Virus record (IMG/VR): IMGVR_UViG_3300021478_000014
From: a virus
Reading direction: 5' to 3' (one strand)
DNA length: 35,093 nt
Part shown: piece by piece, positions 2,775-27,121 of the stretch
How the letters are laid out: every line of letters begins with the position of its first letter
Position numbering within the stretch: the first letter of the stretch is position 1
Translations under genes and position numbers: made by a program
The notes under the pieces: generated by a model
The model's database searches: none
The model's input: the letters and a program-made list of their open reading frames with translations, nothing else
Told to the model about the DNA's origin: nothing

Positions 2775-4261
2775 AGTTCACCCTTATTTTCGTCTAAATA
2801 TACAACATCATACGTCATTTCGCTTATCAATTCACTGTCTAAAGCAAGTGCTAATGTTTGATAACTTTTGACTCCATGGCTCGACCAATCGTGCTTTGGA
2901 TGGTCTTTAAATTTTCCCATTTTTATGTCAAATTCTTTTTCATAATTCGACAAGCAATCAATCAATCTTTGTGTGTTTTCTTCGTTAAAAGTGGTCATAT
3001 AGAGCTTTTGGCGTATCGTTTCTATCGCTGTTTTGTGTGTGCTTGGTCTCTTTACGATAAAGCACATTTCACCCATTTCATTTAGGTAATCTTGCGTTGT
3101 TTTTAAGCCATCGCCAAAGTTGCGATTTGCGCCATCGTGAGGCACATAATGCGCTTTGACCACAAGGTTTCTAATATTGCAAAATGTCTTTATCTCAGAC
3201 ACATAAAACGCCAACGCTCGATTGTTGTTTTCAATGTATCCTATAATCGTAGGCCATAACTTGCCGTTCCTCGGTTCAAATTGCGTCAAACAAATTGCTG
3301 TACAGTCTGAAACACCGATATCGTAAAATGCATAAACTGCTCTGTTGGGTAAATAATGCCCCCTGATAATCCTTTCTGAATCATGTACCGCATTAATTGC
3401 GATAGCAAAATACTTGGTTTCCTCGTTTATCTGAACATTCCCGTAGTATTCCTGCTGAATAAGATATTCAGGCATTCCAGCGCGTCTATCTTCGTCAACG
3501 TCTGCATCAGTGATATAGGGATTTCCTTCTTCATCAACCAGGGTATTGATGCTTTCTTCTCGGCAAAACCAAAGTGGATCCTCTTGGTTCTTTTTAAGCA
3601 TCCAATAAAAATGGTTCATTCCGTTATACGTAGATTGACCAAAGAGCCAACCGCCATTTTGGCGCAGCACAGGCATCATGGAATAAAGGACTTTGGGATC
3701 GGAGAATGCGAGTTCACAATAGACAATACCACGGGGGTTAGTACCGCGAAGTTTTTCTGGATCAATGTCACACCCTACAATCCATATAAGGCTTCCATTT
3801 GTAAGGTGTATGGTCATGTCTGCATCGTTTGATTTACGCGCCATAAGCCGCTTAGGAATCATATCCAAAAACTTGATACTACTTCCTGTGCCTAAATCTA
3901 ACATAGCACCTTCCCATAGGATTTTACGCGCCCTTACGTTAGTCGGGTAAACCATCAAATACATCCCTGGATCGCTGATTGCAAAATCAAGTACTAAGTT
4001 CCAGGTCGTGACCTCTTTTCCCGCTCGCCGTGGCCACTCTGCCAATATTCTCTTAGATTCTTTATTAAGCAACACATCGCGTACTTCACGCTGATAAGGC
4101 CTAAAGTTAATAATGGGAATACGTACTTTATATCCATCTGACCATGTCACATGTAAATTATTTAATTCATCACGTGTTAATTCATAACTGCTCAACGATT
4201 GTTTGTGATAAGCCCCTAAGGCCTTATCACGTAAAGCCTTGGCTTCTTGGAGAACGCTCAT
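2771..4261 (-). CDS. terL: Terminase large subunit
   Basis: 496 aa. Walker A-like AEWPRRAGKE follows RPYQREV. The ATPase is followed by a nuclease region (YDIGVSDCTAI, VPHDG, KHDWSSHG). Size and motif order are typical of TerL. Confidence 0.9.
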   Translation of the reverse strand: MSVLQEAKALRDKALGAYHKQSLSSYELTRDELNNLHVTWSDGYKVRIPIINFRPYQREVRDVLLNKESKRILAEWPRRAGKEVTTWNLVLDFAISDPGMYLMVYPTNVRARKILWEGAMLDLGTGSSIKFLDMIPKRLMARKSNDADMTIHLTNGSLIWIVGCDIDPEKLRGTNPRGIVYCELAFSDPKVLYSMMPVLRQNGGWLFGQSTYNGMNHFYWMLKKNQEDPLWFCREESINTLVDEEGNPYITDADVDEDRRAGMPEYLIQQEYYGNVQINEETKYFAIAINAVHDSERIIRGHYLPNRAVYAFYDIGVSDCTAICLTQFEPRNGKLWPTIIGYIENNNRALAFYVSEIKTFCNIRNLVVKAHYVPHDGANRNFGDGLKTTQDYLNEMGEMCFIVKRPSTHKTAIETIRQKLYMTTFNEENTQRLIDCLSNYEKEFDIKMGKFKDHPKHDWSSHGVKSYQTLALALDSELISEMTYDVVYLDENKGEL

Positions 4262-5433: not shown

Positions 5434-7788
5434 TTAAAATAATGAGGTTTGGCCAGGTTCTACGTAAGGTTTGTTGCCAAGGAATGAATCAACAAAAGGA
5501 GAGATGCCAGGAACCGTGCTAATTGGGTTTGCGACGTTGGCAAATTCTCGTGCTGCGTGTTTAGCACCTTTAAAATCACCCGTAGTTAGCGCAAAGGCTG
5601 TTTTTACTGGATCGTACAAGAACTTCCAAGTAGGCGTACCAAATAGAGCACCCGCTGCCGTCTTTGATGCTGATTTGTCGCTTAGGATAGAGCCAAAAAC
5701 GCCGAGACCACCGCCTAACAATTTGGCAAAATATTTTGCCTGCTCTCCACGGCTCATATTTGCAGGATTTGGCGGCGTCAATCCATTGCTAATCGCGATT
5801 AAAGCTTCAGACAATGAAGCTAGCATTATAGTACCAAGGCTCTGATTTAACGCATACATCATCTTGCCTTGGAAACTATCAAAGTCTTGCATGCCACCTA
5901 CCCATACGCGCCTAAAATACTGTATAGGATAGGCCTTAAACTGTGCAAACATTCGCCATATTTCTCCCCCAACATGACCAGGCCTGAAATTGCCTGTTGT
6001 AATCATGTTAGTGTAGCCTGTTGGGTTTAAAACTGAGAACTCATGCGCCGTGTCAAACATCGCAAATACTTTCCTGTATAAAGTCGATCCATATTCCGAC
6101 AATGGAACGCTTTTATCTGAGTCTTGCCATAATTCCCGTATTTCGCTATCTGTCATGTTCGTGACATTATCGGTTGAGAATAAGCGTTTTTCTGTCTTTG
6201 AGCGGATTGCATCCCATTCAGGTTCGCTAATGTTAAAACGCTTTAAATATGCTTGCTGTTGATCGTCTAAGGCATTAAAAGTTTTCTTGGATTGCTTTCC
6301 ATAGACCTTCATAATCGGATCCATGGCAGATAATTTATTGCCACGGTCAAGCGCATGCAATCCTATTCTATGAAAAAACTTATTCGATAGCCGGTTGACT
6401 GTATCGCCAACGCCGCTTAAATCTGAAAACCTTGAAATTGTACCACTATGCACATTGATTGTTGCTGACATTATCCTTGATAGTTCGGTACGACTTTCAC
6501 TCGGCAATCTATCAAACATATTAACGATCGCATTTACGTAGGGTTTCCAGTAGCCCGCACCTGCACGTTGCGCGAACCCTGCAATGTTTGCGGTATCTGA
6601 GATACTTAACAAAGCAATCTTACCAAGCCTTGCAACGGATGTTATTGAGCGAATGCTCGCGCTAATGTTTGCAAAATTTGGGTTAACAGCACCTTTTGTA
6701 GCACCCAATAGATTATTAAATAGTGCGTCACTAGTTTGATGTTCAAGCCCATTCTTAATGGAATTTGCTTCAGCACCTTGTTTAGCAACTTGAACATGGC
6801 GCATTTCAAGCCACATCGATTGTGGGGCCGTACCAAATATTTCGGCCAAACCTACTTGCTGTCCTGAGGTTCTAATATCCATATGCCAAGATTCAACCAA
6901 CGACCCTTGGCCATAATCTTTGTTCGACATGCCCCAGCTTTTCCAGTCTTTGTACTTGTAGAACATATGGCGCGTACGCTCTATTGCTTGCCTGTCTCTT
7001 GATACCGCGGCTTTTGTGAACAATGGTCCATTTCCTTGGATGATATTATCGAAGGTATTTCCTATCATCTCATTAACAATTGCATCATCAATCTGGCCTT
7101 CTACAGTCATAGCTCTTGTATCTCTAAATGTCGCCGGAACATCAATTCTTGATTTATGCATTTCAATCCAGGCTTCCCGACCAATCTTGAGCAATTTTGA
7201 TTGATCGTAGGTGTTTCTAAAAAACCTATCTTGGTTCATCGCGCTTGCTTGCATCGCGTAGGATTTAATTAACATGGCATTACGTGGATCGATATAATCT
7301 CTTAAAGATTCCCCAATTTGCTGCACCATTTTGTTCTCATGTGTGCCTCCATCAGCTACAGCAAATATTGCATCATCAAAGGTTTTTTCTTCAAGCGCGT
7401 CTAAATGCTCTTTGGACATTTTATTGAATGCTTGAGTAGTCAATAGTTGTCTTGCGGCATTTGACGCAGTTTCTATATTGTAATCTGTGTTCTTTGCGGT
7501 CTTCTCCAAGAAAGCTCTTGGTGCAATATCAGCATCCATCTTGGTTTTTATTGTGTCCCACTTCCCAATGTTCCTCGCAGCACGAGCTGAATCTTCAAGC
7601 AAAATTTCCATGTGCGCTTTGTTTATTTCACCCATTGCAGCTTCGCGGGCAAAGGGAACACCTGCGGTTTGTAGCTCTCTTGCTCGGCTATTGACTTGCT
7701 TGATATATCCCTCAAGCTCTTCACCTGTAAATAAATTAAGGGCTTGTCTAGCAGTATCAATACATTCCGCTTTGTTTCTAGTCATCAT
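5434..7788 (-). CDS. Internal virion / ejectosome protein (784 aa)
   Basis: Large protein in the T7 gp15/gp16-equivalent position between tail tubular B and the fibre. Translationally coupled (ATGA) to the upstream gene. No enzymatic motif recognised. Confidence 0.5.
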   Translation of the reverse strand: MMTRNKAECIDTARQALNLFTGEELEGYIKQVNSRARELQTAGVPFAREAAMGEINKAHMEILLEDSARAARNIGKWDTIKTKMDADIAPRAFLEKTAKNTDYNIETASNAARQLLTTQAFNKMSKEHLDALEEKTFDDAIFAVADGGTHENKMVQQIGESLRDYIDPRNAMLIKSYAMQASAMNQDRFFRNTYDQSKLLKIGREAWIEMHKSRIDVPATFRDTRAMTVEGQIDDAIVNEMIGNTFDNIIQGNGPLFTKAAVSRDRQAIERTRHMFYKYKDWKSWGMSNKDYGQGSLVESWHMDIRTSGQQVGLAEIFGTAPQSMWLEMRHVQVAKQGAEANSIKNGLEHQTSDALFNNLLGATKGAVNPNFANISASIRSITSVARLGKIALLSISDTANIAGFAQRAGAGYWKPYVNAIVNMFDRLPSESRTELSRIMSATINVHSGTISRFSDLSGVGDTVNRLSNKFFHRIGLHALDRGNKLSAMDPIMKVYGKQSKKTFNALDDQQQAYLKRFNISEPEWDAIRSKTEKRLFSTDNVTNMTDSEIRELWQDSDKSVPLSEYGSTLYRKVFAMFDTAHEFSVLNPTGYTNMITTGNFRPGHVGGEIWRMFAQFKAYPIQYFRRVWVGGMQDFDSFQGKMMYALNQSLGTIMLASLSEALIAISNGLTPPNPANMSRGEQAKYFAKLLGGGLGVFGSILSDKSASKTAAGALFGTPTWKFLYDPVKTAFALTTGDFKGAKHAAREFANVANPISTVPGISPFVDSFLGNKPYVEPGQTSLF

Positions 7789-9830
7789 TCACCCAGCGCG
7801 CATGTTATTAACTCAGAAAGGGCTTTCTCGTTTTCAGTAAATTGCCTATACCGTCTTTCGCTTGATTCAAAATGTTCAGCCCCGTCTTTAAATTCAGACC
7901 TCTTGGCTTTCTCTATTGAGGCTTCATCATACAAAACTTCTGGTTTCATTGAGACATCAACGGCAGATTTTTCTTTTGCTATACGTTCTTTATATTCGAT
8001 TCCAGTTTCTGCAAATTCTCTAGCGTTTGGGATGGATGATTCCACTCTGCTAGAAAGGTATCTTTTAACAGCATCAGGATCAGCAAGGCGTGCGGCGCTA
8101 GTGTCAACCATATCCAGAAATTTTTTAAGAACGTTATTAAGCCCTGCTTGCTTTGCATTAGTAGCCTCCATATGAATTCTATCGAGCAAAACTTGTGCAT
8201 GTGCGTCGACTTGTGACAAGTCCTCTAGCCTATAATATGCCGCCCTATTTTTAAAATCATCGATTAATTTGCCATCCGGCATCAATTTATCTTTGATATG
8301 TAGCAACTCTTCGCCTGGTTTGATTAACTTTATCTCTTTTAATGCATCTTTAAGCGCTAAGTGTTCCCCCCTTTCATGCATAGCTCGAAACTTTGTCGTA
8401 GATTTGCCTTCAATCATTTTAATTTCATGCGCTAATCTTAGTTTTAACATTACTTTATTTGGTATATGGTGAGGTATTTCTGAACGTGATAATTTTTTAC
8501 CATTGAGAGTTGAACTTTGATAATCCTTTAAATTTTTATACATATTATCTTGCGTTAATATATGCTCTCTTCCAATTCCCTTTGGTAGTTTCCTAGTTAA
8601 AGCCTCGTCAAATGCCCTTAAAGCTGCACTGTGCGCCTCAATTTTCAAACCTAAATTGTGTGTCATTCCACTCATAGCTTGAAACAAATTAGGGTTGTCT
8701 CGCATCGTAGCTATATAGCCGTCAAGCTCGTTATGTACAATGTAGCTAGATAGCAATTGGTTTTCTTCATCACTGAAATTTGTTATGTGCTGGTCGAACA
8801 ACGCGCTTTTTACATCCTGAACGCCCTGGTGGGTCAATACCTGGTTCCATACGCGACCCGTGACGCGATCGTATGGAATTTGCAACGCCTGCATTATCTT
8901 TAGCCCCCCTTGATGAACCTTCCCCATATCATTGGGGTTTTCAAGGTAGTCTAGATACCATTTATGCATTTCAGGGGATATTAAGCCCTCGTCTTCCGCT
9001 TGTTGCAAATGATGTTGCAACTCTGATACTTTGGCCTCGCGTTTTGCGACTTCTCCCGCTTTGATCTCGTTCTCTTTTAATGTGGCTTCATGAGCCACGT
9101 GCAGTCGCGTCATTTCTGCTTCATGCGCTACTTTAGCAATCCCCGCCTTTCTTCGGCTTATGACCCCACCAACGCCTTTAAAGGCTATATATCCAGCTGC
9201 CAAAGGTGCCGCACCCAATAAGAAACCATAGTTATCGGATCCCCAATCTTGTATCGCGTGGCTTACATCAAGAGAATTTTCAACGGCGTTGTAATGCTCT
9301 GCAAAATGCTCTGGTATGATCATCCCCTTGTATCCCAAATAACCCTCTGTGGCTCCTGCGGCCAATGTACCAATACTAATATTTGGCACAAAATGGCTTG
9401 CAGCTTCAGGGACAAGTTTGGATATTGGAACTTGAGTTGATAGATATCTAGCTAATGCGTTCTCACTAGCCAAATCAAGTGCTAGTTCCCTCGCCCCAAA
9501 TCCTATTGCTCCCGCAACGCCCGCACCAACGGCACCTCCCGCTAATAAGAATGGTGCCGTTGGAACTAAACCGCCTACAAGACTACTAATCTGGTTTGCT
9601 ACTATCTGGCCAAATCCTTGCCGTGGATCGTTTAGGGTTTCATTAATTGTAGAAAGTCTCGCTGCACTTTCACGCCGTGTTTGTTCAGTCGAGAGTCCAG
9701 GAAAAATATAATCACCAATCTGTCCTACTTGTTCGTAGGGTTTTCTAAAAGCTGCGGATGCCGTTTGACCAATACCAGGTTTAGGGGCAACATCATTAAA
9801 TAACTCTCCTTGCCTTTCCCCGCCTAGCAT
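7785..9830 (-). CDS. Internal virion / ejectosome protein with glycine-rich hydrophobic segments (681 aa)
   Basis: Called by position. Has predicted membrane-inserting stretches (LVGGLVPTAPFLLAGGAVGAGVAGAIGFG; FLLGAAPLAAGYIAFKGVGGVI). Confidence 0.5.
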   Translation of the reverse strand: MLGGERQGELFNDVAPKPGIGQTASAAFRKPYEQVGQIGDYIFPGLSTEQTRRESAARLSTINETLNDPRQGFGQIVANQISSLVGGLVPTAPFLLAGGAVGAGVAGAIGFGARELALDLASENALARYLSTQVPISKLVPEAASHFVPNISIGTLAAGATEGYLGYKGMIIPEHFAEHYNAVENSLDVSHAIQDWGSDNYGFLLGAAPLAAGYIAFKGVGGVISRRKAGIAKVAHEAEMTRLHVAHEATLKENEIKAGEVAKREAKVSELQHHLQQAEDEGLISPEMHKWYLDYLENPNDMGKVHQGGLKIMQALQIPYDRVTGRVWNQVLTHQGVQDVKSALFDQHITNFSDEENQLLSSYIVHNELDGYIATMRDNPNLFQAMSGMTHNLGLKIEAHSAALRAFDEALTRKLPKGIGREHILTQDNMYKNLKDYQSSTLNGKKLSRSEIPHHIPNKVMLKLRLAHEIKMIEGKSTTKFRAMHERGEHLALKDALKEIKLIKPGEELLHIKDKLMPDGKLIDDFKNRAAYYRLEDLSQVDAHAQVLLDRIHMEATNAKQAGLNNVLKKFLDMVDTSAARLADPDAVKRYLSSRVESSIPNAREFAETGIEYKERIAKEKSAVDVSMKPEVLYDEASIEKAKRSEFKDGAEHFESSERRYRQFTENEKALSELITCALGE

Positions 9831-17605: not shown

Positions 17606-18490
17606 TTATGCGTTGGCAACGTATGGGTCGTTGGTTTCGATTAATGCAATACCGTTATACTGTATAACGTTTGCACCCGAAGTAATAACAGTCAATAATT
17701 CCCAACGGTCATTTTGTGGTACCCAGGTAATGCTTGTGGATACGTCACGGTTAAAAATCTGTACCATTGAATCCATGTGAACTAATGGCACTAAATAGGT
17801 ATTAGTTCCAGCAGCAGACGTGAAGGGGATTGTATTTATACCATTCGCGCCTAGGGTTCGTATGTCTACACCTAAGTATGACGACAACTTGTTATCAACT
17901 AATGGCCTAACATCATTGTAAAATATATTTACAACGCGATCATCATTAAGCATTGATTGCTTAGTAATTGCCGGCAACCAAAGGGAACAAGAATGTTCCA
18001 TGACGTTAACACCTTGGTTTTCCAAGTAAGACAATGCTTGGGCCATTTTAGCTTCATTCATACCCGTGTTAACGCCAACAGTTGTTGGAACACTGAATAT
18101 GGTACTGAAACCAGCTGAGGTAAACAGGGCATTAATCTTAATGTAATCCACCATTCGTGCAGCTGCTAAGGCATGCAATTTTGCATGGTCAACAATCTTG
18201 TCATAGGCAAATAGGGTCTTTTCACCGCCTCCAATAACAGTTTTGAGTGCATAGTTGTACGGCACAATCATAACGTTGGTAGGATTTACTGGTGTAATCG
18301 GGATATCAACAGGCGCGTAGGTCTGTGATTGCATTTCGATAATGTCAGAAACAGGCACATTGGTTGCTTCACCAGTTGTCCCGTGACGTTCTTCGATTGT
18401 ATCAGCCAGATATTGGCTATTTTGATATTTTATTGTGACTTCGGTATCAAACAATTGTGACGCCGTAGCCAAATCAATTTGATCGGCCAT
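17606..18490 (-). CDS. Major capsid protein
   Basis: 294 aa from the ATG at 18490 (GAGG 8 nt upstream). The longer ORF-track start has no SD. Position after the scaffold and before the tail genes, together with the size, is compatible with a small HK97-fold podovirus capsid protein. Confidence 0.7.
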   Translation of the reverse strand: MADQIDLATASQLFDTEVTIKYQNSQYLADTIEERHGTTGEATNVPVSDIIEMQSQTYAPVDIPITPVNPTNVMIVPYNYALKTVIGGGEKTLFAYDKIVDHAKLHALAAARMVDYIKINALFTSAGFSTIFSVPTTVGVNTGMNEAKMAQALSYLENQGVNVMEHSCSLWLPAITKQSMLNDDRVVNIFYNDVRPLVDNKLSSYLGVDIRTLGANGINTIPFTSAAGTNTYLVPLVHMDSMVQIFNRDVSTSITWVPQNDRWELLTVITSGANVIQYNGIALIETNDPYVANA

Positions 18491-18666
18491 GATGTTAACC
18501 TCAATAGTATAAACAAATACGCGCATGTGATCGCGTGCCTATTAGATAACTATTGGGTTGCGGCATGACCGGCCAATATTAAGTTTGATTCTAAAAAGAA
18601 AGGTTGCCAGTGATTGTTTGGGCTTTCAGTCAAGAATGCTTATATTTTATGTCTCAATGTCTCATA

Positions 18667-18915
18667 ATGTCAAATATGAACGATATTAATCAAATGCGCC
18701 TTGGTGTTTTGCGCGAGATCAAAAACATTAGAAAGTTTTTCGATATGATGGAAAAGGGCGTCAAGTCTCGCGATCCTATTAAAGTCCAACGAGCTTATTT
18801 TTTTATTATGACTATGGTTCGTCATATGGATGAGGGCGATTTGACCCCATTATCCATTGAATTATTTGAAGCATTGACTCTATATAATCAAAACAACTAT
18901 ATAGATAGTGGATGA
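18667..18915 (+). CDS. Hypothetical protein (82 aa) in reverse orientation inside the late block
   Basis: The only long ORF in the 18491..19209 gap, with a protein-like helical, charged composition. A possible promoter (TTGGGC-17-TATATT, 18618..18646) lies upstream. There is no good SD and the start is uncertain (18649, 18667 or 18676). Confidence 0.4.
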   Translation: MSNMNDINQMRLGVLREIKNIRKFFDMMEKGVKSRDPIKVQRAYFFIMTMVRHMDEGDLTPLSIELFEALTLYNQNNYIDSG

Positions 18916-19174
18916 CCAGTGTAGGCATTTCAGCCTAGAGGAAGTTTCGCACGGCAACTCAGGCTTAGGTCTCCGACTCCCTAGAATATAGCTCTAAGCT
19001 TTCAAGTACTATCTACGTTTTCGGTCGCACTGGTCATAATGTTCCACGTGGAACATAAGCCACGCCATTCAGGTGTCCTGGTCATTTGAATGTTCTCTTG
19101 TCGATTCGACGACTTCCCCGCGAAGCTTCTCACTTCCTAGGCTTATGGTTTACTTATAAACCAACTTCAAGTTG
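18912..19174. other. GC-richer non-coding island with dense long-range and local self-complementarity (candidate structured RNA or protein-binding/processing region)
   Basis: 10-bp pairing 18912..18921 / 19028..19037. A 7+10-bp helix 18932..18938 + 18941..18950 with 19120..19129 + 19137..19143. Local hairpins or palindromes at 19039..19056, 19100..19110, 19147..19162 and 19162..19174. No ORF of 60 aa or more on the late strand. Confidence 0.5.
19039..19056. repeat. Perfect 18-bp palindrome ATGTTCCACGTGGAACAT
   Basis: Read directly. A 17/18 copy lies at 23157..23174. Confidence 0.95.
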
Positions 19175-19209
19175 ATGTCTATAATCACTAAGTCTGGTTA
19201 TAATACTAA

Positions 19210-19398
19210 TCAGACTTTTGATAATTGTTCTTCAAGCTTAATAATTCTTTCTTCCATTGAATCCATAAAATCTTCAATTTCATTACCATATTCTAGGCCG
19301 TCTTTTACATGTAGGTCAGCCCATTTTTCTAGTTCCCTCACCCTCTCTTTTAGCTTTAAATTCTCACTTCTCAGTTCTTTAATTTCATCTTCCATCAT
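19210..19398 (-). CDS. Hypothetical coiled-coil protein (62 aa)
   Basis: Heptad-like, E/K/L-rich sequence (EIKELRSENLKLKERVRELEKW...). Tightly packed with the upstream genes. Confidence 0.5.
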   Translation of the reverse strand: MMEDEIKELRSENLKLKERVRELEKWADLHVKDGLEYGNEIEDFMDSMEERIIKLEEQLSKV

Positions 19399-19399
19399 C

Positions 19400-19612
19400 T
19401 CACCTTATCAATGTTCGCATCCACTCTCTTATTGTCGCCCAAAAATCGTCCATAGATGTTTCGGGGATAAATTCCCTATAGCCTAAATCCTTGCCTTTAA
19501 AAAAAACATTAATAACAATCAATCGTTCCTTGGCTTTTTGCTTTATCTCAAATTTATAGTTTGGATATATTGAACGAAGTTTATATTTAATTGCTGCTAT
19601 TGGTAGTGCCAT
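19400..19612 (-). CDS. Hypothetical protein (70 aa)
   Basis: GGTGA lies 5 nt upstream of the ATG. Ends 1 nt before the next gene. Confidence 0.55.
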   Translation of the reverse strand: MALPIAAIKYKLRSIYPNYKFEIKQKAKERLIVINVFFKGKDLGYREFIPETSMDDFWATIREWMRTLIR

Positions 19613-19907
19613 CTATTTCACCATTTACAGGTATGAATAAATCGTATAATTCATTAAATATTTCAGCTTTGCAAGGGTAAATCTCACCTGCGATCCCCTT
19701 GATGATATAGTCACCAAGGCAAGCACGCATTGCACCCTCTAGAGTTTGTATCATTATAAAGGGCTCAAGATATTCATAAGCATTTTTATCTTTATGAAAA
19801 AACGCTGTTTGATGTTCTATGTGTAGATTCATATTAAACCATTCTGGCTTGTCATGATGACCATATCGAAACGCCTCGATTACAATCGGTCTTTTAATGT
19901 ATTTCAT
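19587..19907 (-). CDS. Hypothetical protein, PGDYG-like small phage protein (tentative)
   Basis: The motif LGDYIIKGIAGEIYPCKAEIFNELYD resembles the PGDYG-family signature (GD(Y/W)...G..GE.YP...F...Y). Single-nucleotide overlap with the scaffold gene stop. Confidence 0.5.
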   Translation of the reverse strand: MKYIKRPIVIEAFRYGHHDKPEWFNMNLHIEHQTAFFHKDKNAYEYLEPFIMIQTLEGAMRACLGDYIIKGIAGEIYPCKAEIFNELYDLFIPVNGEIDGTTNSSN

Positions 19908-20530
19908 TATTCACCTGCATGTGCCATTTGTGCTGATAATGCAATGTAACGCCTCTGTGCTTCAACGCGAGCTTTACCGCGCGATTTAGTCATCACTTCT
20001 CGCGCTTTAATGATGTCTTCGTGTGTAACATTATTATAATTATTGCTGCTAACTCGCCCTAACCCTGGGGTACTTGAGTTTAACGCGGCTGTTCTCTCGG
20101 CCATTAGGGATTCCCGCACGTCTTTGTTCTTAATCGCCTCTTTCAATACGGCATCACGTAGCTTTTCAGGATAGGATTTGCTTATGAAGTCTTGCAAAAG
20201 ATTAAGATTATCAGCGCCAATCTCTTTCTTTGAGTTCTCAAAGGCATCAAGTTTTCCACGTACTTGCGAATCTTGCTTGGCTGCGAGCTTCTCAAACTGT
20301 GCTTGAGTCAATCCACTTTCTTTGGCTGATTGCTTAAGTTGTTGTACGTCATTATCGTGAAGTGCAACGTTTGCGGGGACTTGATAATCATCAGGCACGG
20401 CTGTAGCTTGGGTATATTTGGTTTTGAGATCGTCATTTTCTTGATACACCTTCGCAGCATTGTTATATCCCGCCTCTAGTTCTTCAATCGTTTTGAATTT
20501 TCCAGCGTATAGCTTTACATCTTCAGTCAT
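19907..20530 (-). CDS. Capsid assembly (scaffolding) protein
   Basis: 207 aa, highly charged and helical. The N-terminus (KFKTIEELEAGYNNAAKVYQE) is typical of T7-like scaffolds. Positioned downstream of the portal. Confidence 0.6.
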   Translation of the reverse strand: MTEDVKLYAGKFKTIEELEAGYNNAAKVYQENDDLKTKYTQATAVPDDYQVPANVALHDNDVQQLKQSAKESGLTQAQFEKLAAKQDSQVRGKLDAFENSKKEIGADNLNLLQDFISKSYPEKLRDAVLKEAIKNKDVRESLMAERTAALNSSTPGLGRVSSNNYNNVTHEDIIKAREVMTKSRGKARVEAQRRYIALSAQMAHAGE

Positions 20531-20866: not shown

Positions 20867-21151
20867 TTAAGATATTGTAGTATCTTCTCTTTCATCCTGT
20901 ATCTCTAAATTTTGTTTATGAATTAAAGCCTCAACCTTATCAATAGTTGACTTAATTCCGCGCAATATAGAACGCCTTCCCTCATAAAATGCTAATAAGG
21001 TACATGTCATTGAACTATCTTCTGGTTCCTCCCAGAACAGTTCTTCTTTCATGTGGTTCAGACATTCTCGGCCTAAATCACTAGTGAACAACTGATATAT
21101 CTTAAGCTCATTTGGTGATATTAATTTTGCTTCCATTAACGTTTCAATCAT
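20867..21151 (-). CDS. Hypothetical protein, Bbp19-like (tentative)
   Basis: 94 aa. The pattern Y.LF.S.LGRE.L......AFYEGRRSILRGI resembles small Bbp19-type proteins found next to podovirus portals. Overlaps the portal stop. Confidence 0.45.
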   Translation of the reverse strand: MIETLMEAKLISPNELKIYQLFTSDLGRECLNHMKEELFWEEPEDSSMTCTLLAFYEGRRSILRGIKSTIDKVEALIHKQNLEIQDEREDTTIS

Positions 21152-22731
21152 ATTGTTACCCCCTGGTTTTCTGGAAACTTGACTTGACCCGCTGTTGTTG
21201 ATGGTTGCGCGCCAGTTGCAGCTTGTTGTTGTTCGGCACCTGCAGCTAAGGTTTTCTTCATTTGATCATCACTAGCTGATAACTTCGCTGGCAAATTAAG
21301 CTTGTCCATGATGAACCTATTGGTCTCAAACAAATCCATTGTTATCATCGGCGCGCTTTGTCCCCAAAACTGTTGTTTGGTTTGCAGTGCTGTAATAAGA
21401 TGGTTTAAATCTGTCTGGTTTTGGATGTCATAAAGTGGAGATTGAAACGCAAACTTTAGTTGTCTGGGGTCAAATCCTGGTATTACTTCTTTCGGCTTTA
21501 GCAGTAATCCTCTGCCATTTAGAATCTTCGCCGAGATTTCGAAAACCTGCCTTGGAAGTTCGTTTATTAGTCTTGATATGTCTGTGCTTGCTGTTCGCTG
21601 GGCTCTGTTTTCACGAATCGATATCTCTGTTGCAGATTTAACAGGGCTTTGTATTTCACCTAGTGGATCGACCATGAAAGCTCTTTGTATAGTTTCTTGC
21701 ATATGTACAATATGCTGAAACACGTCTGGATACTCAGGCATTTGCAAGGCTTCAAGAGGATTTCGGCCATTTGGTTGCCTGGCAATCATAGCCCCGGCCC
21801 ATTGCCTTACAGAATATGGATTAAAGTATGTTCCTGCATCGTAGAACATGGGCGGATTAGCTTTGAATGCCATGTTCTTTCTTGAGTATTGCACTATCCG
21901 GTTTAAGTCTTCTATTGTTGGCATCATATCAATAGCAACGCCGCGCCCTTCGGCTTCCCCTGGCCTTACTCTATCCCGATATACAATAATTTGGCGATAA
22001 TCGCTATACCTATCCCATAAGACAGTAAATGGATCGTTATCAAGTACAGCATAGATGTAATACTCCTCTTTTCCTACTTCCACTTGTCCGTAATTTACTG
22101 AGTATGTATCGTTTGGGTTGTCTTTGAGGTTATTGTATTGTGTGCCTTTGTAATCGGGAAATGTATCAAGTACCGCTCGCCCTGTCATTTTAGACACATA
22201 CCAACAATTTCTAATTAAGTCATCGTTGCAATACTCAATATAAAGAGCAACAGCGGGTATACTACGAAAATATAAAGGAACATCATCCGATGGCGATTCA
22301 ACCCAGATAACTCCAGTGCCCCCCACGAGATCAAGATTACTAGAACCCACAACACGAGCAAGATTTGATTCGTTAAGAAAAAACATAAGTCGTTCATTGA
22401 TTTTATCCAGTACTATTTGGCCTTTTTGTATGGCAGCTTCATCATGTTGATGAGGATCTAAAACATACTTACCCCATACGCGGTCTTTCGGCATGAGCAA
22501 ACCATGCAAATCATTTGCGCGCTGATATGCTGAAATCATCGCCGTATTGTCCCAAATCATTTGGGTCACAGGCTTGCCTGTATCCGTATAATTAAACTTG
22601 ATATTGAATGCATCGCGATCAGGTATTACATAAAGATAAAGGTTCTTATAAAGAGCGAGCCAACGGTCTTTATAGTAGCGTGCCTCTTGGAACCTTTCGT
22701 TTAGCTTATGGAAATTTTCAGGCGGTTGCAT
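21148..22731 (-). CDS. Portal (head-to-tail connector) protein, T7 gp8-like
   Basis: 527 aa. The N-terminus (RFQEARYYKDRWLALYKNLYLYVIPDRDAF), the size and the position upstream of scaffold and capsid are typical of podovirus head-tail connectors. Confidence 0.8.
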   Translation of the reverse strand: MQPPENFHKLNERFQEARYYKDRWLALYKNLYLYVIPDRDAFNIKFNYTDTGKPVTQMIWDNTAMISAYQRANDLHGLLMPKDRVWGKYVLDPHQHDEAAIQKGQIVLDKINERLMFFLNESNLARVVGSSNLDLVGGTGVIWVESPSDDVPLYFRSIPAVALYIEYCNDDLIRNCWYVSKMTGRAVLDTFPDYKGTQYNNLKDNPNDTYSVNYGQVEVGKEEYYIYAVLDNDPFTVLWDRYSDYRQIIVYRDRVRPGEAEGRGVAIDMMPTIEDLNRIVQYSRKNMAFKANPPMFYDAGTYFNPYSVRQWAGAMIARQPNGRNPLEALQMPEYPDVFQHIVHMQETIQRAFMVDPLGEIQSPVKSATEISIRENRAQRTASTDISRLINELPRQVFEISAKILNGRGLLLKPKEVIPGFDPRQLKFAFQSPLYDIQNQTDLNHLITALQTKQQFWGQSAPMITMDLFETNRFIMDKLNLPAKLSASDDQMKKTLAAGAEQQQAATGAQPSTTAGQVKFPENQGVTI

Positions 22732-26444: not shown

Positions 26445-26639
26445 AACGAAAAAGAATTTGCAGAATATGTATATAGCTACTACGGATATAAAGGAATATT
26501 CGATATGTATGTCAGCATGCCTGAAATATTAAGGGCAATTGAAGTTAGAAAATTATTTTACCAGGTGGCCTTTGAATGTGACAGCATTGATCGTGAGCTT
26601 ATTAGAGACATTATCCTGGCAATCAGGGGCGTACAATGA
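26442..26639 (+). CDS. Hypothetical early protein (65 aa)
   Basis: Conserved SD cassette. The stop overlaps the next start (ATGA). Confidence 0.65.
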   Translation: MNEKEFAEYVYSYYGYKGIFDMYVSMPEILRAIEVRKLFYQVAFECDSIDRELIRDIILAIRGVQ

Positions 26640-27121
26640 AACTAACCGATGCCCTATCAATCCTAAATATCACCGGCGACTATACCCCGGAAACAATCAA
26701 GACCGCATACCGCAAGGCGTGCAGTCAATACCATCCAGATCGCAACGCTTCAGGCCTTGAGATGATGAAAATGGTCAACCAGGCATATGACGCAATCAAA
26801 GAGCAAACAGGAACCGCGGCCAATGATAGCGAACAATGCTACGGGGATGAGATCAACAACGCTTTAAACCAAGTGATTAACCTTGGACTTGATATCGAAG
26901 TGTGCGGGGCATGGGTATGGCTGCACGGTGATACAAGACCTCATAAAGACATTATAAAAGCTGCGGGCTTTCGTTGGGCACCTAAAAAGACCCTATGGTA
27001 TTACAGGCCAGCAGATTACAAGAGCAATGGTCGCGGGAAGTTTTCAATGGAAGAAATTAGAGAACGTCATGGTAGCCAGAAGGTGACCATGAAAGAGCGT
27101 AATAAATTACGGGCTGCGTGA
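26636..27121 (+). CDS. J-domain (DnaJ-like) co-chaperone protein
   Basis: ILNITGDYTPETIKTAYRKACSQYHPDRN...MMKMVNQAYDAIK is a canonical J-domain with the HPD tripeptide. The C-terminal domain (VCGAWVWLHGDTRPHKDIIKAAGFRWAPKKTLWYY) is unrelated to DnaJ. Confidence 0.8.
   Translation: MKLTDALSILNITGDYTPETIKTAYRKACSQYHPDRNASGLEMMKMVNQAYDAIKEQTGTAANDSEQCYGDEINNALNQVINLGLDIEVCGAWVWLHGDTRPHKDIIKAAGFRWAPKKTLWYYRPADYKSNGRGKFSMEEIRERHGSQKVTMKERNKLRAA

Follow-up and report, generated by a model that had tools for sequence, protein, structure and literature searches.

Two conserved structured-RNA families in the gap before the capsid gene of an uncultured phage

Results

Gene content of the gap

The sequence analysed here, hereafter the window, is the 35,093-nt IMG/VR virus record IMGVR_UViG_3300021478_000014, in which a gap of ~700 bases precedes the capsid gene. 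A first-pass annotation had reported no late-strand ORF of 60 aa or more in this gap, and we indeed find none on the minus strand in 18527-19209, the longest ones being 51, 38 and 43 aa; likewise, the GC-rich island it had noticed is genuine, with a G+C content of 0.46 at 18900-19099 versus 0.32-0.37 in the flanks. Among relatives the scaffold-capsid gap is an insertion hotspot, its size varying from 190 nt to 1.9 kb. In the window it holds a small protein gene, orf82, on the plus strand, plus two back-to-back structured-RNA genes, designated modules B and A, most likely on the opposite strand. The features of the locus are:

18644 to 18673, minus strand: near-consensus sigma-70 promoter of the capsid gene, TTGACA, 18 nt, TAAAAT (11/12 matches)
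18676 to 18915, plus strand: orf82, conserved small protein gene (48 protein clusters, E 1e-46 to 6e-10)
18909 to 19037, minus strand: module A, structured RNA of ~125 nt, tRNA-derived (covariance model R2 and covariation)
19039 to 19056, no strand: perfect 18-nt palindrome with halves ATGTTCCAC and GTGGAACAT (inverted-repeat search and folding)
19049 to 19147, minus strand: module B, RNA of ~95 nt with four helices in cloverleaf topology (covariance model R1 and covariation)
19153 to 19181, minus strand: sigma-70-like promoter, TAGACA (19181-19176), 17 nt, TATAAG (19158-19153) (promoter scan)
19190 to 19217, plus strand: hairpin AAGTCTGGTTA / TAATCAGACTT, then TTTTG (inverted-repeat search and folding)

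The minus strand runs through module B (19147 to 19049) before it reaches module A (19037 to 18909). The two are separated by the 19039-19056 palindrome, which overlaps the 3' end of module B together with its CCA. Each module occurs once in the 35-kb window, where we found neither tRNA genes nor genes for RNA-repair or tRNA-related proteins. When the region and the module B consensus were compared by BLASTN with 50,697 phage records no match was obtained; for the capsid there is only a 24%-identical relative. A literature search for the invariant 14-mers found none, and the five matches of a gapped module B pattern in representative genomes were all due to chance, with non-homologous flanks; no host was identified in this way.

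The antisense ORF previously proposed at 18667-18915 is a real gene, to which the 48 protein clusters are homologous. Its frame is open from 18667, and translation probably starts at the ATG at 18676 (MNDINQMRL...), judging from the homologues. Alignment A1 has six invariant residues (E29, Y44, H53, D58, L59 and P61), and the predicted fold is a three-helix bundle (AF2 mean pLDDT 81.7). The protein matches nothing in Pfam or PHROG, nor does its fold significantly resemble any in the PDB. The gene is convergent with both RNA genes. Beyond them lies the 19190-19217 hairpin, which overlaps the stop codon of a minus-strand gene of 62 aa. The suggestion that a weak hairpin with a T-run could end a plus-strand transcript here has held up, in that substitutions preserve plus-strand pairing: in homologous hairpins of three relatives (L211 and L212 among them) all five transitions (5/5) give plus-strand G-U pairs. 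The hairpin is therefore likely to terminate the plus-strand transcript of orf82 or to form its 3' end.

The minus-strand promoter at 19153-19181 scores 7.9, above the 95th percentile of background, and its predicted start, near 19146, coincides with the beginning of module B. Equivalent promoters in the syntenic relatives L009, L013 and L023 score 7.3-8.4; outside this clade no equivalent was found, and no promoter consistently adjoins the modules in either orientation. In the late-strand direction the capsid promoter follows the island, and its boxes are the same in L210 and read TTGACA-18-TACAAT in L013. The earlier proposal that the island is a structured 5' UTR of the capsid mRNA, or an RNase III site within it, is therefore difficult to maintain, since the capsid gene has its own near-consensus promoter (18673-18644) further downstream. 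A T7-type RNase III site, which would be a single long irregular hairpin with an internal bubble recurring at several intergenic sites of one genome, was rejected as well, both modules being multi-branched and found only once in a genome.

Two independent modules with covariation-supported folds

The main complementarity on which the first-pass annotation had drawn is present. ATGACCAGTG (18912-18921) pairs perfectly with CACTGGTCAT (19028-19037), a second CTGGTCAT lies at 19078-19085, AGCCTAG (18932-38) is complementary to CTAGGCT (19137-43), as is GAAGTTTCGC (18941-50) to GCGAAGCTTC (19120-29) save for a single U-G on the plus strand; the two long-range helices do cross each other, and local hairpins exist at 19039-56, 19100-13 and 19190-19217. 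A perfect 10-bp inverted repeat arose in only 2.7% of 300 dinucleotide shuffles, and folding gave z-scores of -3.5 (plus strand) and -2.6 (minus strand). What this complementarity was taken to mean has, however, to be revised in part. The idea of a conserved structured RNA is borne out by strong covariation, but in two independent modules rather than in a single unit, and the pseudoknot built from the two long helices does not survive, because the 18912/19028 pairing is the closing stem of module A whereas the 18932/19143 pairing is not conserved. The latter is a window-specific alternative, the arms of which belong to conserved local helices, namely the module A hairpin (18922-26/18933-37) and P4 and P1 of module B; a fold that contains the long-range helix gains no more than 1.4 kcal/mol over the modular one.

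Module A scores 149 bits with covariance model R2 in the window and is represented by 17 distinct copies, in which 96.3% of paired cells are indeed paired and 19/24 pairs have changed on both sides, values reached by 0/500 shuffles. Its fold is thus proven by covariation and it constitutes a conserved family. The closing, acceptor-like stem joins 19028-19037 with 18912-18921, and its 3' strand is adjoined by a hairpin equivalent to a T-arm, UAGGC-UGAAAU-GCCUA (18937-18922). The minus-strand RNA is predicted to have its 5' end between U19036 and G19035, and the window tail reads A-U-CCA (18913-18909). Where a tRNA would have its anticodon arm there is a conserved domain of ~80 nt comprising two helices, P3 (18939-18945 with 18976-18982) and P4 (18952-18954 with 18973-18975), both supported by covariation, and the invariant loops of the module read UAGUACUU..AAG..CUGAGC.AUAUU and GAGACCU...GAGUUGC. 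The D-arm is lost in most copies. A canonical T-arm (5 bp with a UUCRANN loop) and a D-arm with GG are found in L219b only; the other copies, including that of the window, have a 5-bp stem, a U-GNRA-U loop and no D-arm, the L215 loop being UGCAAUU. Module A is best read as a tRNA derivative, its acceptor-like closing stem stacked on the T-arm-equivalent hairpin.

Module B, which scores 91 bits with model R1 in the window, was studied in 15 copies plus 3 variants, making 18 distinct copies. Its closing stem P1 (19054-19061 with 19140-19147) encloses a P2 arm (19066-19075 with 19083-19092) built around the invariant block 19068-19083, a short P3 (19100-19103 with 19110-19113) and P4 (19122-19125 with 19133-19136), the loop of which is UGAGAAG on the minus strand; the invariant loop reads AUGACCAGGACACCUGAA and the window copy ends in a UU-CCA tail (19053-19049). 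Paired cells amount to 95.2% versus 77% in shuffles and 31-46% in slid controls, half of the pairs (14/28) have changed on both sides, and the covariation score is 0.485 as opposed to 0.142; none of 500 shuffles reaches the observed values. Covariation thus proves the fold of this second conserved family too. Canonical members have a 7-bp closing stem and none of the canonical tRNA arms. Both modules are distributed sporadically and occur as a single copy per genome, with one paralogous pair in L219 as the sole exception.

Tests against known RNA classes

In line with the by-eye impression of the first-pass annotation, no tRNA, tmRNA or common ribozyme model matches the region. The Rfam 15 collection, applied to the window and 20 related loci at gathering as well as permissive thresholds (E<=10, E<=5), returned no family, and modules A and B are thus two families absent from Rfam 15. 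ARAGORN called 0 tRNA genes in the window, and the Rfam tRNA model found nothing at E<=10 in 18400-19400. At the family level, an acceptor stem beginning with G1-C72, a purine at 73 and a 3' CCA are seen, with the window copies deviating; a location in tRNA arrays, in the same direction and with short spacers, is seen for module A in six loci but not in the window. No tmRNA was called by ARAGORN, and the reading frames after the UAGUAC motif are not conserved. The Rfam C4 model matched neither module, and with up to 3 mismatches allowed no further copy of the invariant 16-nt block of module B was found on either strand of the 35-kb window.

A riboswitch or gene-specific 5' leader was rejected because no common gene class follows the modules (capsid, RtcB, TerL-like and J-domain genes, an orf82 homologue and small ORFs are found there), and no conserved terminator or Shine-Dalgarno-sequestering hairpin was seen. 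A Y RNA was dismissed for want of an Rfam match, because the module ends form an acceptor-like stem and because RtcB is adjacent in one locus only; a repeated phage promoter was set aside because the motif occurs once per genome. Likenesses to boxA/boxB nut-like sites or a put-like antiterminator are of sequence only, with the pieces on different strands or the cores mismatched, and the same holds for hammerhead or twister cores, kink-turns, C/D boxes and the 11-nt GNRA receptor, in which strands were split or cores mismatched. A small peptide on the gene strand (..HGEVV..NDQDT*) was abandoned because its frame is disrupted by indels in P3 and lacks a start codon in the window copy. More generally, no reading frame survives the indels, which measure +1, +2 and +14 nt, and the substitutions are pairwise compensatory, which argues against the island being a decayed protein gene.

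Strand and tRNA ancestry

The functional strand of both modules is most likely the minus, late-gene strand. This preference rests on the adjacency of tRNA genes, the GNRA loops, the termini (a U/G junction at the 5' end and RCCA at the 3' end) and the G-U counts. Canonical tRNA genes lie 0-15 nt from module A on the same strand in L214, L217, L218, L219, L220 and L221; none was seen next to module B, the nearest being 1.2 kb away, in L096. For L219b, ARAGORN with its intron option calls a tRNA, and the Rfam tRNA model gives 22.7 bits on the gene strand, which is below threshold, this being the only copy that scores at all. The ARAGORN reading as an intron-containing tRNA-Phe was rejected because its anticodon stem clashes with two covariation-supported helices.

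On the gene strand the T-arm-equivalent loop of module A reads U-GAAA-U, U-GUAA-U, U-GAGA-U, U-GUGA-U or U-GCAA-U, with one UUCGAUU and one UGCAAUU, and the P4 loop of module B varies similarly (U-GAAA-AU, U-GAGA-AU, U-GCAA-AU and U-GUAA-AU). In module A a U precedes the first base in 12/16 copies, the first base is G and the discriminator a purine in 16/16, RCC is present in 11/16 and the full RCCA in 6/16; among 17 copies of module B, RCCA occurs in 8 and RCC in 11-12. RNase P uses the RCCA motif and processes phage RNAs that are not tRNAs, such as C4 and M3 (PMC11143913, PMC12710915). Of the internal non-Watson-Crick pairs of module A, 7 are G-U when read on the gene strand and 1 when read on the opposite strand. 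Furthermore, in nearly all contexts free of orf82 both modules are co-directional with the flanking genes.

Several observations weigh in the opposite direction. The window copies are non-canonical, module B starting with C and ending in UU-CCA, and module A carrying in its AU-CCA tail two nucleotides before CCA, not one. As for the choice of strand, upper P2 of module B is better paired when read as plus-strand RNA, in which it has two invariant tandem G-U pairs and in which one U-A pair has become U-G in 5 sequences, and RNAalifold as well as single-sequence energies slightly favour the plus strand. An assignment to the plus strand based on these P2 pairs was given up after the tRNA adjacency, GNRA loops and RCCA tails had been found. 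Similarly, the hint that the single U-G on the plus strand, which would be A-C on the minus strand, marks the plus-strand RNA as the folded one is outweighed by the family-wide minus-strand evidence.

Discussion

The reading that we prefer, and to which we assign a probability of roughly 0.6, is that the island is a minus-strand cluster of two tandem genes for tRNA-derived small RNAs. Transcription through B and then A would be driven by the promoter at 19181-19153 or by read-through from the upstream late genes, and the RNAs would be cut from a longer transcript, as tRNAs are in phage tRNA arrays. By analogy with tRNAs, the module RNAs are probably matured in the same manner. With the sequence determinants U-1, G+1 and RCCA, RNase P would cleave at the conserved U/G junction, the 3' end could be trimmed or repaired to purine-CCA, and the products may accumulate as stable trans-acting RNAs, the invariant loops of which would bind a conserved partner. 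The orf82 mRNA would run antisense over both RNA genes and end at the 19190-19217 hairpin.

The resemblance to tRNAs is partial. As in a tRNA, the closing stem starts with G1-C72 after U-1 and many members have a purine discriminator followed by CCA; the 5-bp hairpin of module A is stacked against its closing stem at the 3' strand, and module B has the topology of a four-helix cloverleaf. Unlike tRNAs, the modules lack an anticodon arm and their RNAs are 92-135 nt long, and in module A the T-loop is replaced by U-GNRA-U and the D-arm is lost in most copies. Both families have kept tRNA ends and a stacking core while the decoding part has been replaced by invariant domains, which means that the modules cannot decode; strong structural selection nonetheless acts on them. 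As in phage tRNA arrays, module A sits inside arrays with tRNA-like spacers, and the window modules stand in tandem.

Other phage RNAs offer parallels. The tRNA cluster of T4 encodes two small stable RNAs that are not tRNAs, C and D (species 1 and 2), which are matured with the tRNAs and are not known to have a function. T4 belongs to a different phage group, and these RNAs serve as an analogy only. GOLLD and ROOL are large structured phage ncRNAs that often adjoin tRNA genes, but they are 5-8 times larger than the modules and have no tRNA-like termini, and their Rfam models do not match. C4, CI and M3 are non-tRNA phage substrates of RNase P by virtue of a closing stem and RCCA (PMC11143913). 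Like C4 of P1/P7, CI of P4 and M3 of phi80, the modules are small, operon-embedded phage RNAs with a closing stem and RCCA, their processing being presumed by analogy; they differ in fold and size, and no cis target complementary to the 16-nt block was found in the window with up to 3 mismatches. Partial tRNA architecture put to a purpose other than decoding is also known from the tRNA-like domain of tmRNA, the tRNA-like structures of plant viruses and YrlA, although in contrast to tmRNA the modules contain no conserved tag reading frame. The bacterial Y RNA YrlA is encoded beside rtcB (PMC4201824), and module A of L218 likewise lies directly upstream of an RtcB gene; YrlA, however, ends in a Ro-binding stem rather than an acceptor stem and has no CCA, and no Ro gene was noticed.

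As to what the RNAs do, our preferred guess, which is pure inference, is that they act by mimicry or sequestration on a factor recognising the acceptor end or the elbow of tRNAs. Such a factor could be a host protein of tRNA-targeting immunity, a toxin or a processing enzyme; alternatively, the RNAs could act as base-pairing regulators of the C4/CI type. Recent work has identified the tRNA genes of phages as counter-measures to host immunity that cleaves or modifies tRNAs (PMC11555353), and toxins acting on the acceptor end of tRNA have been described (PMC7450476). One specific form of the idea, tentative and rather unlikely as it stands, is that the modules are phage tRNA-mimic decoys of two new classes that titrate a tRNA-targeting immune effector or toxin of the host, or else hijack a processing or repair enzyme such as RtcB. 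Once matured like a tRNA, each RNA would expose its acceptor stem and CCA end together with an elbow-like surface bearing the invariant loops, which could titrate, for instance, enzymes that cleave acceptor stems or modify CCA ends. If true, this would be an RNA-based counter-defence distinct from the carriage of spare functional tRNAs.

A minority possibility is that the modules are tRNA-like punctuation, i.e. structures acting only in cis at which RNase P (or RNase E/Z) cuts the late polycistronic transcript and sets message stability, the excised RNAs being functionless. The tRNA-like termini and the intergenic, co-directional placement upstream of many unrelated genes are what one would expect of such signals, and entries in the reference list of PMC11143913 point to effects of RNase P on polycistronic operon mRNAs. 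On the other hand, ~35 invariant nucleotides in internal loops and junctions far exceed what a cleavage signal needs, for which a plain tRNA or minihelix would suffice, and the capsid gene of the window has its own downstream promoter.

It is less likely still that the functional RNA is the plus-strand one, that is, a structured 3' UTR of orf82 or a small RNA derived from it and ending at the 19190-19217 hairpin. The modules do lie between the orf82 stop codon and a hairpin with plus-strand-preserving substitutions, and the G-U pairs in upper P2 of module B, the slightly better folding energies and the z-score of -3.5 all fall on the plus side. But the modules also occur without orf82, where plus-strand RNAs would be antisense to the neighbouring genes; in L220 orf82 differs both in its strand and in the side of module A on which it lies; and the tRNA genes adjoining module A are on the opposite strand. 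In addition, on the plus strand the loops would take the form UYNC, corresponding to no known loop motif, the junctions would be rich in C and U, and A-C mismatches of module A would outnumber G-U pairs 7 to 1.

Base-pairing regulators of the P1 C4 or P4 CI type, excised by RNase P and pairing through their loops with phage or host mRNAs to control expression or immunity, appear improbable. Their general design is matched by an operon-embedded phage RNA with a closing stem, RCCA and invariant exposed loops. Nevertheless, the Rfam C4 model does not match, the 16-nt block of module B lacks the second (target) copy sought in the window, and the loops are invariant across phages that differ in gene content, which argues for a partner that is not of phage origin. 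Finally, an island without any RNA function, be it decaying tRNA pseudogenes or a DNA element such as an origin, pac site, MITE or recombination hotspot, would accord with the insertion hotspot and the sporadic occurrence of the modules but is very improbable indeed, because compensatory changes keep four helices per module across 17-18 diverged copies, which pseudogenes would have lost, and because there is one copy per genome (bar the L219 pair), with no target-site duplications. The MITE once proposed to be bounded by the 18932/19143 repeats fails for the same reasons, these repeats belonging to two different modules and target-site duplications not having been found for either, and no evidence was found for a pac or ori site.

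Returning to the tandem tRNA-derived genes that we favour, the modules provide two well-supported new RNA motifs with explicit folds and 17-18 diverged copies each, and they illustrate that the seemingly empty gaps of uncultured phage genomes can hide RNA genes missed by tRNA finders and Rfam. The copies of module A, moreover, form an evolutionary series that leads from a recognisable tRNA, in L219b, to a derivative without a D-arm.

Two conserved RNA modules between the scaffold and capsid genes

The gap of about 700 nt to which the first-pass annotation drew attention is real, since no minus-strand ORF of at least 60 aa lies within 18527-19209; its G+C is higher than that of the flanks, and the inverted repeats described there are present at the coordinates given. 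A perfect 10-bp inverted repeat occurs in 2.7% of shuffles, and thermodynamic folding is better than in shuffles on both strands (z = -3.5 plus, -2.6 minus). The finding nevertheless needs re-interpretation: the island is best read as two tandem late-strand genes for tRNA-derived small RNAs, together with an unrelated convergent small protein gene, orf82, and both RNA families are new to Rfam.

By BLAST against relatives the island is a composite, its halves being conserved with different contigs. Module A, the left half (18910-19040), is kept in some contigs only, and module B, the right half (19054-19147), in others, which have neither orf82 nor module A. Pattern scans and two covariance models yielded 18 distinct module B copies and 17 distinct module A copies, in which standard pairs form in 95.2% and 96.3% of cells, respectively, and 14/28 and 19/24 pairs have changed on both sides. 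In neither case did any of 500 shuffles equal the observed values, and pairing in slid-partner controls was 31-46% for module B and 32-41% for module A. Compensatory changes in relatives thus preserve the helices of two separate modules, each a conserved fold. One loop of module B varies in length by +1, +2 and +14 nt, which excludes a conserved reading frame. Scans of both modules on both strands, in the window and 20 other loci, matched no family in Rfam 15, and the module B motif was not found in 185,579 bacterial and archaeal representative genomes, bar five chance matches.

The two long-range helices of the first-pass annotation fared differently. One is the 10-bp closing stem of module A, backed by compensatory changes in relatives (GACCAGUG, GACAAGUG, GACAAGCG, GGCAAAUG and others). 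In the other, the 3' strand of module A's U-GAAA-U hairpin, together with part of helix P3, pairs with P4 and P1 of module B, and each of these arms is committed to a conserved local helix. The modules are adjacent in no relative, and on the minus strand the fold that includes this helix gains only 1.4 kcal/mol over the modular one. We take the helix to be an alternative specific to the window or a coincidence. A plus-strand pseudoknot, a MITE and a pac site were all rejected in favour of the two modules.

Features of the island and its late-gene surroundings (all minus strand)
21148-22731: portal, late gene
19907-20530: scaffold-like gene, late gene
19181-19153: sigma-70-like promoter TAGACA-17-TATAAG, conserved in syntenic relatives
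19147-19054: module B; closing stem, three hairpins and invariant block 19083-19068, then UU-CCA
between modules B and A: spacer, an 18-nt palindrome
U19036/G19035 boundary: predicted 5' end of module A
within module A: conserved 5' region, P3/P4 arm and U-GAAA-U hairpin
18913-18909: AU-CCA tail of module A
18673-18644: capsid promoter, near-consensus sigma-70, TTGACA-18-TAAAAT, downstream of the island
17606-18490: major capsid gene, late gene
downstream of the portal, scaffold-like and capsid genes: tail tubular proteins, late genes

Transcription from the promoter at 19181-19153 is predicted to start at the first bases of module B.

The window covers most of a podovirus-like genome of ~35 kb, which encodes a lambda-O-like replication initiator and a GH108 endolysin; no RNA polymerase gene was found in the window. 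BLASTN of the region against phage records gave no match, there is no cultured relative, and the closest match to the capsid protein is just 24% identical, while IMG/VR holds 62 related contigs. In these (L001-L062) the stretch between the scaffold and capsid genes can be as short as about 190 nt or as long as 1.9 kb, and its small genes differ from lineage to lineage, which marks it as an insertion hotspot with accessory-gene turnover; inserts include zinc-ribbon and coiled-coil proteins. One 106-aa protein (19587-19907, minus; PHROG 4502/419, motif GDYIIKG..GE.YPCK) has homologues in L119 (730-1014) and L189 (2273-2512), and in these three contexts, which otherwise differ, the family member precedes module B and shares its strand. 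In L095 an HNH endonuclease immediately precedes module B and a J-domain protein, also encoded in the window (26636-27121, plus), follows it; module A in L216 and L223 is flanked by p70-like small proteins.

The RNAs are probably read from the gene strand

The first-pass annotation saw a weak hint of the plus strand as the folded species. In favour of that strand are two invariant G-U pairs and one U-A/U-G pair in the upper P2 arm of module B, but these are outweighed by the remaining evidence. In contexts without orf82, the window-plus reading places both modules antisense to every flanking gene and the minus-equivalent reading places them in their neighbours' direction. In the hairpin that neighbours the 3' side of module A's closing stem, the gene-strand loops follow the GNRA pattern (U-GAAA-U, U-GUAA-U, U-GAGA-U, U-GUGA-U, U-GCAA-U), with UUCGAUU and UGCAAUU as exceptions in one copy each, and the module B P4 loop shows the same GNRA-type variation. 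Among the internal non-Watson-Crick pairs in module A, seven are G-U on the gene strand and one is G-U on the other. ARAGORN places canonical tRNA genes on the gene strand at six loci, separated from module A by 0-15 nt. One module A copy, L219b, has a canonical D-arm (CCGC-AGUUGGGUUA-GCGG) and T-arm (GUAGG-UUCGAUU-CCUAC) and is called a tRNA by ARAGORN when introns are permitted; with the Rfam tRNA model its gene-strand score is 22.7 bits (E = 0.14). The termini of both families also resemble those of tRNAs on that strand: module A has U at -1 in 12/16 copies, G at +1 and a purine discriminator in 16/16, and RCCA in 6/16 (RCC in 11/16); module B has a 7-bp closing stem, with RCCA in 8/17 and RCC in 11-12/17. 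Together these lines of evidence assign the RNAs to the minus strand, with high confidence for module A and as likely for module B, where the P2 observation points the other way.

The 16-nt block of the module B P2 arm (19068-19083; TTCAGGTGTCCTGGTC, gene strand GACCAGGACACCUGAA) does not vary in 15 copies, and the remaining three have one substitution each, compensated in the P2 partner. A helix with tandem G-U is possible solely on the non-gene strand, the gene strand offering a CAGG-ACA-CCUG mini-hairpin alone.

In L218 (6609-8205) the order is tRNA-Asn, tRNA-Met, tRNA-Met, directly followed by module A, and then an RtcB RNA ligase gene (Pfam E = 7.6e-117), a layout that resembles, in this one instance, the bacterial rsr-Y RNA-rtcB arrangement. 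A tRNA-rich region of L219 holds two paralogous module A copies ~2.3 kb apart (5910-6051 and 8313-8445), of which one resembles a tRNA, D-arm and T-arm included, and the other has the derived form without a D-arm; the pair may be a snapshot of the family's origin.

orf82 and the capsid promoter

The antisense ORF is a genuine gene: orf82 (18676-18915, plus) has 48 homologous protein clusters with six invariant residues, and the start of its homologues corresponds to the second ATG of the window's ORF, 18676. The AlphaFold prediction is a three-helix bundle (pLDDT 82); searches gave no significant match to a PDB fold and placed the protein in no Pfam or PHROG family. The hairpin at 19190-19217, proposed earlier as a plus-strand transcript end, has homologues in L211 and L212 whose five differences are all transitions giving G-U on the plus strand (chance about 0.03 under strand neutrality). 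The orf82 transcript probably ends at this hairpin and would in that case run antisense to both RNAs.

orf82 is no obligatory partner of module A, which lacks it as a neighbour in L095, L214-L219 and L223. The family occurs in the window, L063-L092, L210-L213, L220 and L222, and its position and orientation relative to module A vary: it is convergent with both RNA genes in the window, convergence being the arrangement of the window's clade, and lies directly downstream on the same strand in L220.

That the island is the capsid 5' UTR is contradicted by the capsid gene's own promoter, conserved in L210 and L013, which sits downstream of it. A conserved leader of ~110 nt (18527-18640, minus) precedes the capsid gene. 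The capsid -35 box overlaps the orf82 start on the opposite strand, so the two promoters are intertwined; just upstream of orf82 a tandem direct repeat, ATGTCTCA ATGTCTCA (18649-18664), falls inside the spacer of the capsid promoter.

A proposed role for the RNAs

The tRNA ancestry or mimicry of the RNAs and, for module A, the placement in tRNA arrays are evident. Judging from RNase P and tRNA-maturation rules, they would be excised and end-matured in the manner of tRNAs: RNase P RNA interacts with RCCA, U at -1 and G at +1 are preferred, and the phage C4 and M3 RNAs are processed by this enzyme (PMC11143913, PMC12710915). More speculatively, the mature RNAs might bind a conserved partner through their invariant loops. 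We favour, equally speculatively, a protein recognising the acceptor end or the elbow of tRNAs, for which the RNAs would act as decoys, because the loops are invariant across phages of differing gene content and no complementary target was found in the window, in a scan with the 16-nt module B block allowing up to 3 mismatches. The latter weighs against regulation by base pairing, a less likely alternative, as is a pure cis "punctuation" role of the modules.

Related elements in other loci

On the gene strand, L023 (about 3330-3410) and L120 carry a ~58-nt tRNA-like fragment shortly after module B; it has an acceptor-like stem of 7 bp, a canonical T-arm (UGGG-UUCGAUC-CCCA) and a tail of ACC, lacks an anticodon arm and is not called by ARAGORN. 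Related GGCCGGAGCG motifs lie near module B in L094 and L116. Six loci (L095, L096, L123, L125, L142, L189) have extra covarying hairpins that precede module B by 8-60 nt on the gene strand and share the U-GNRA-NN heptaloops of P4 (e.g. GAGGG-UGAGAAA-CCCUC, GCGGG-UGAAAAU-CCCGC), and L095 and L123 have further conserved blocks, GGCCGACGAUACUAGGA and CCGUGGGAAAAUAGGCC, downstream, so that some lineages may have a larger RNA.
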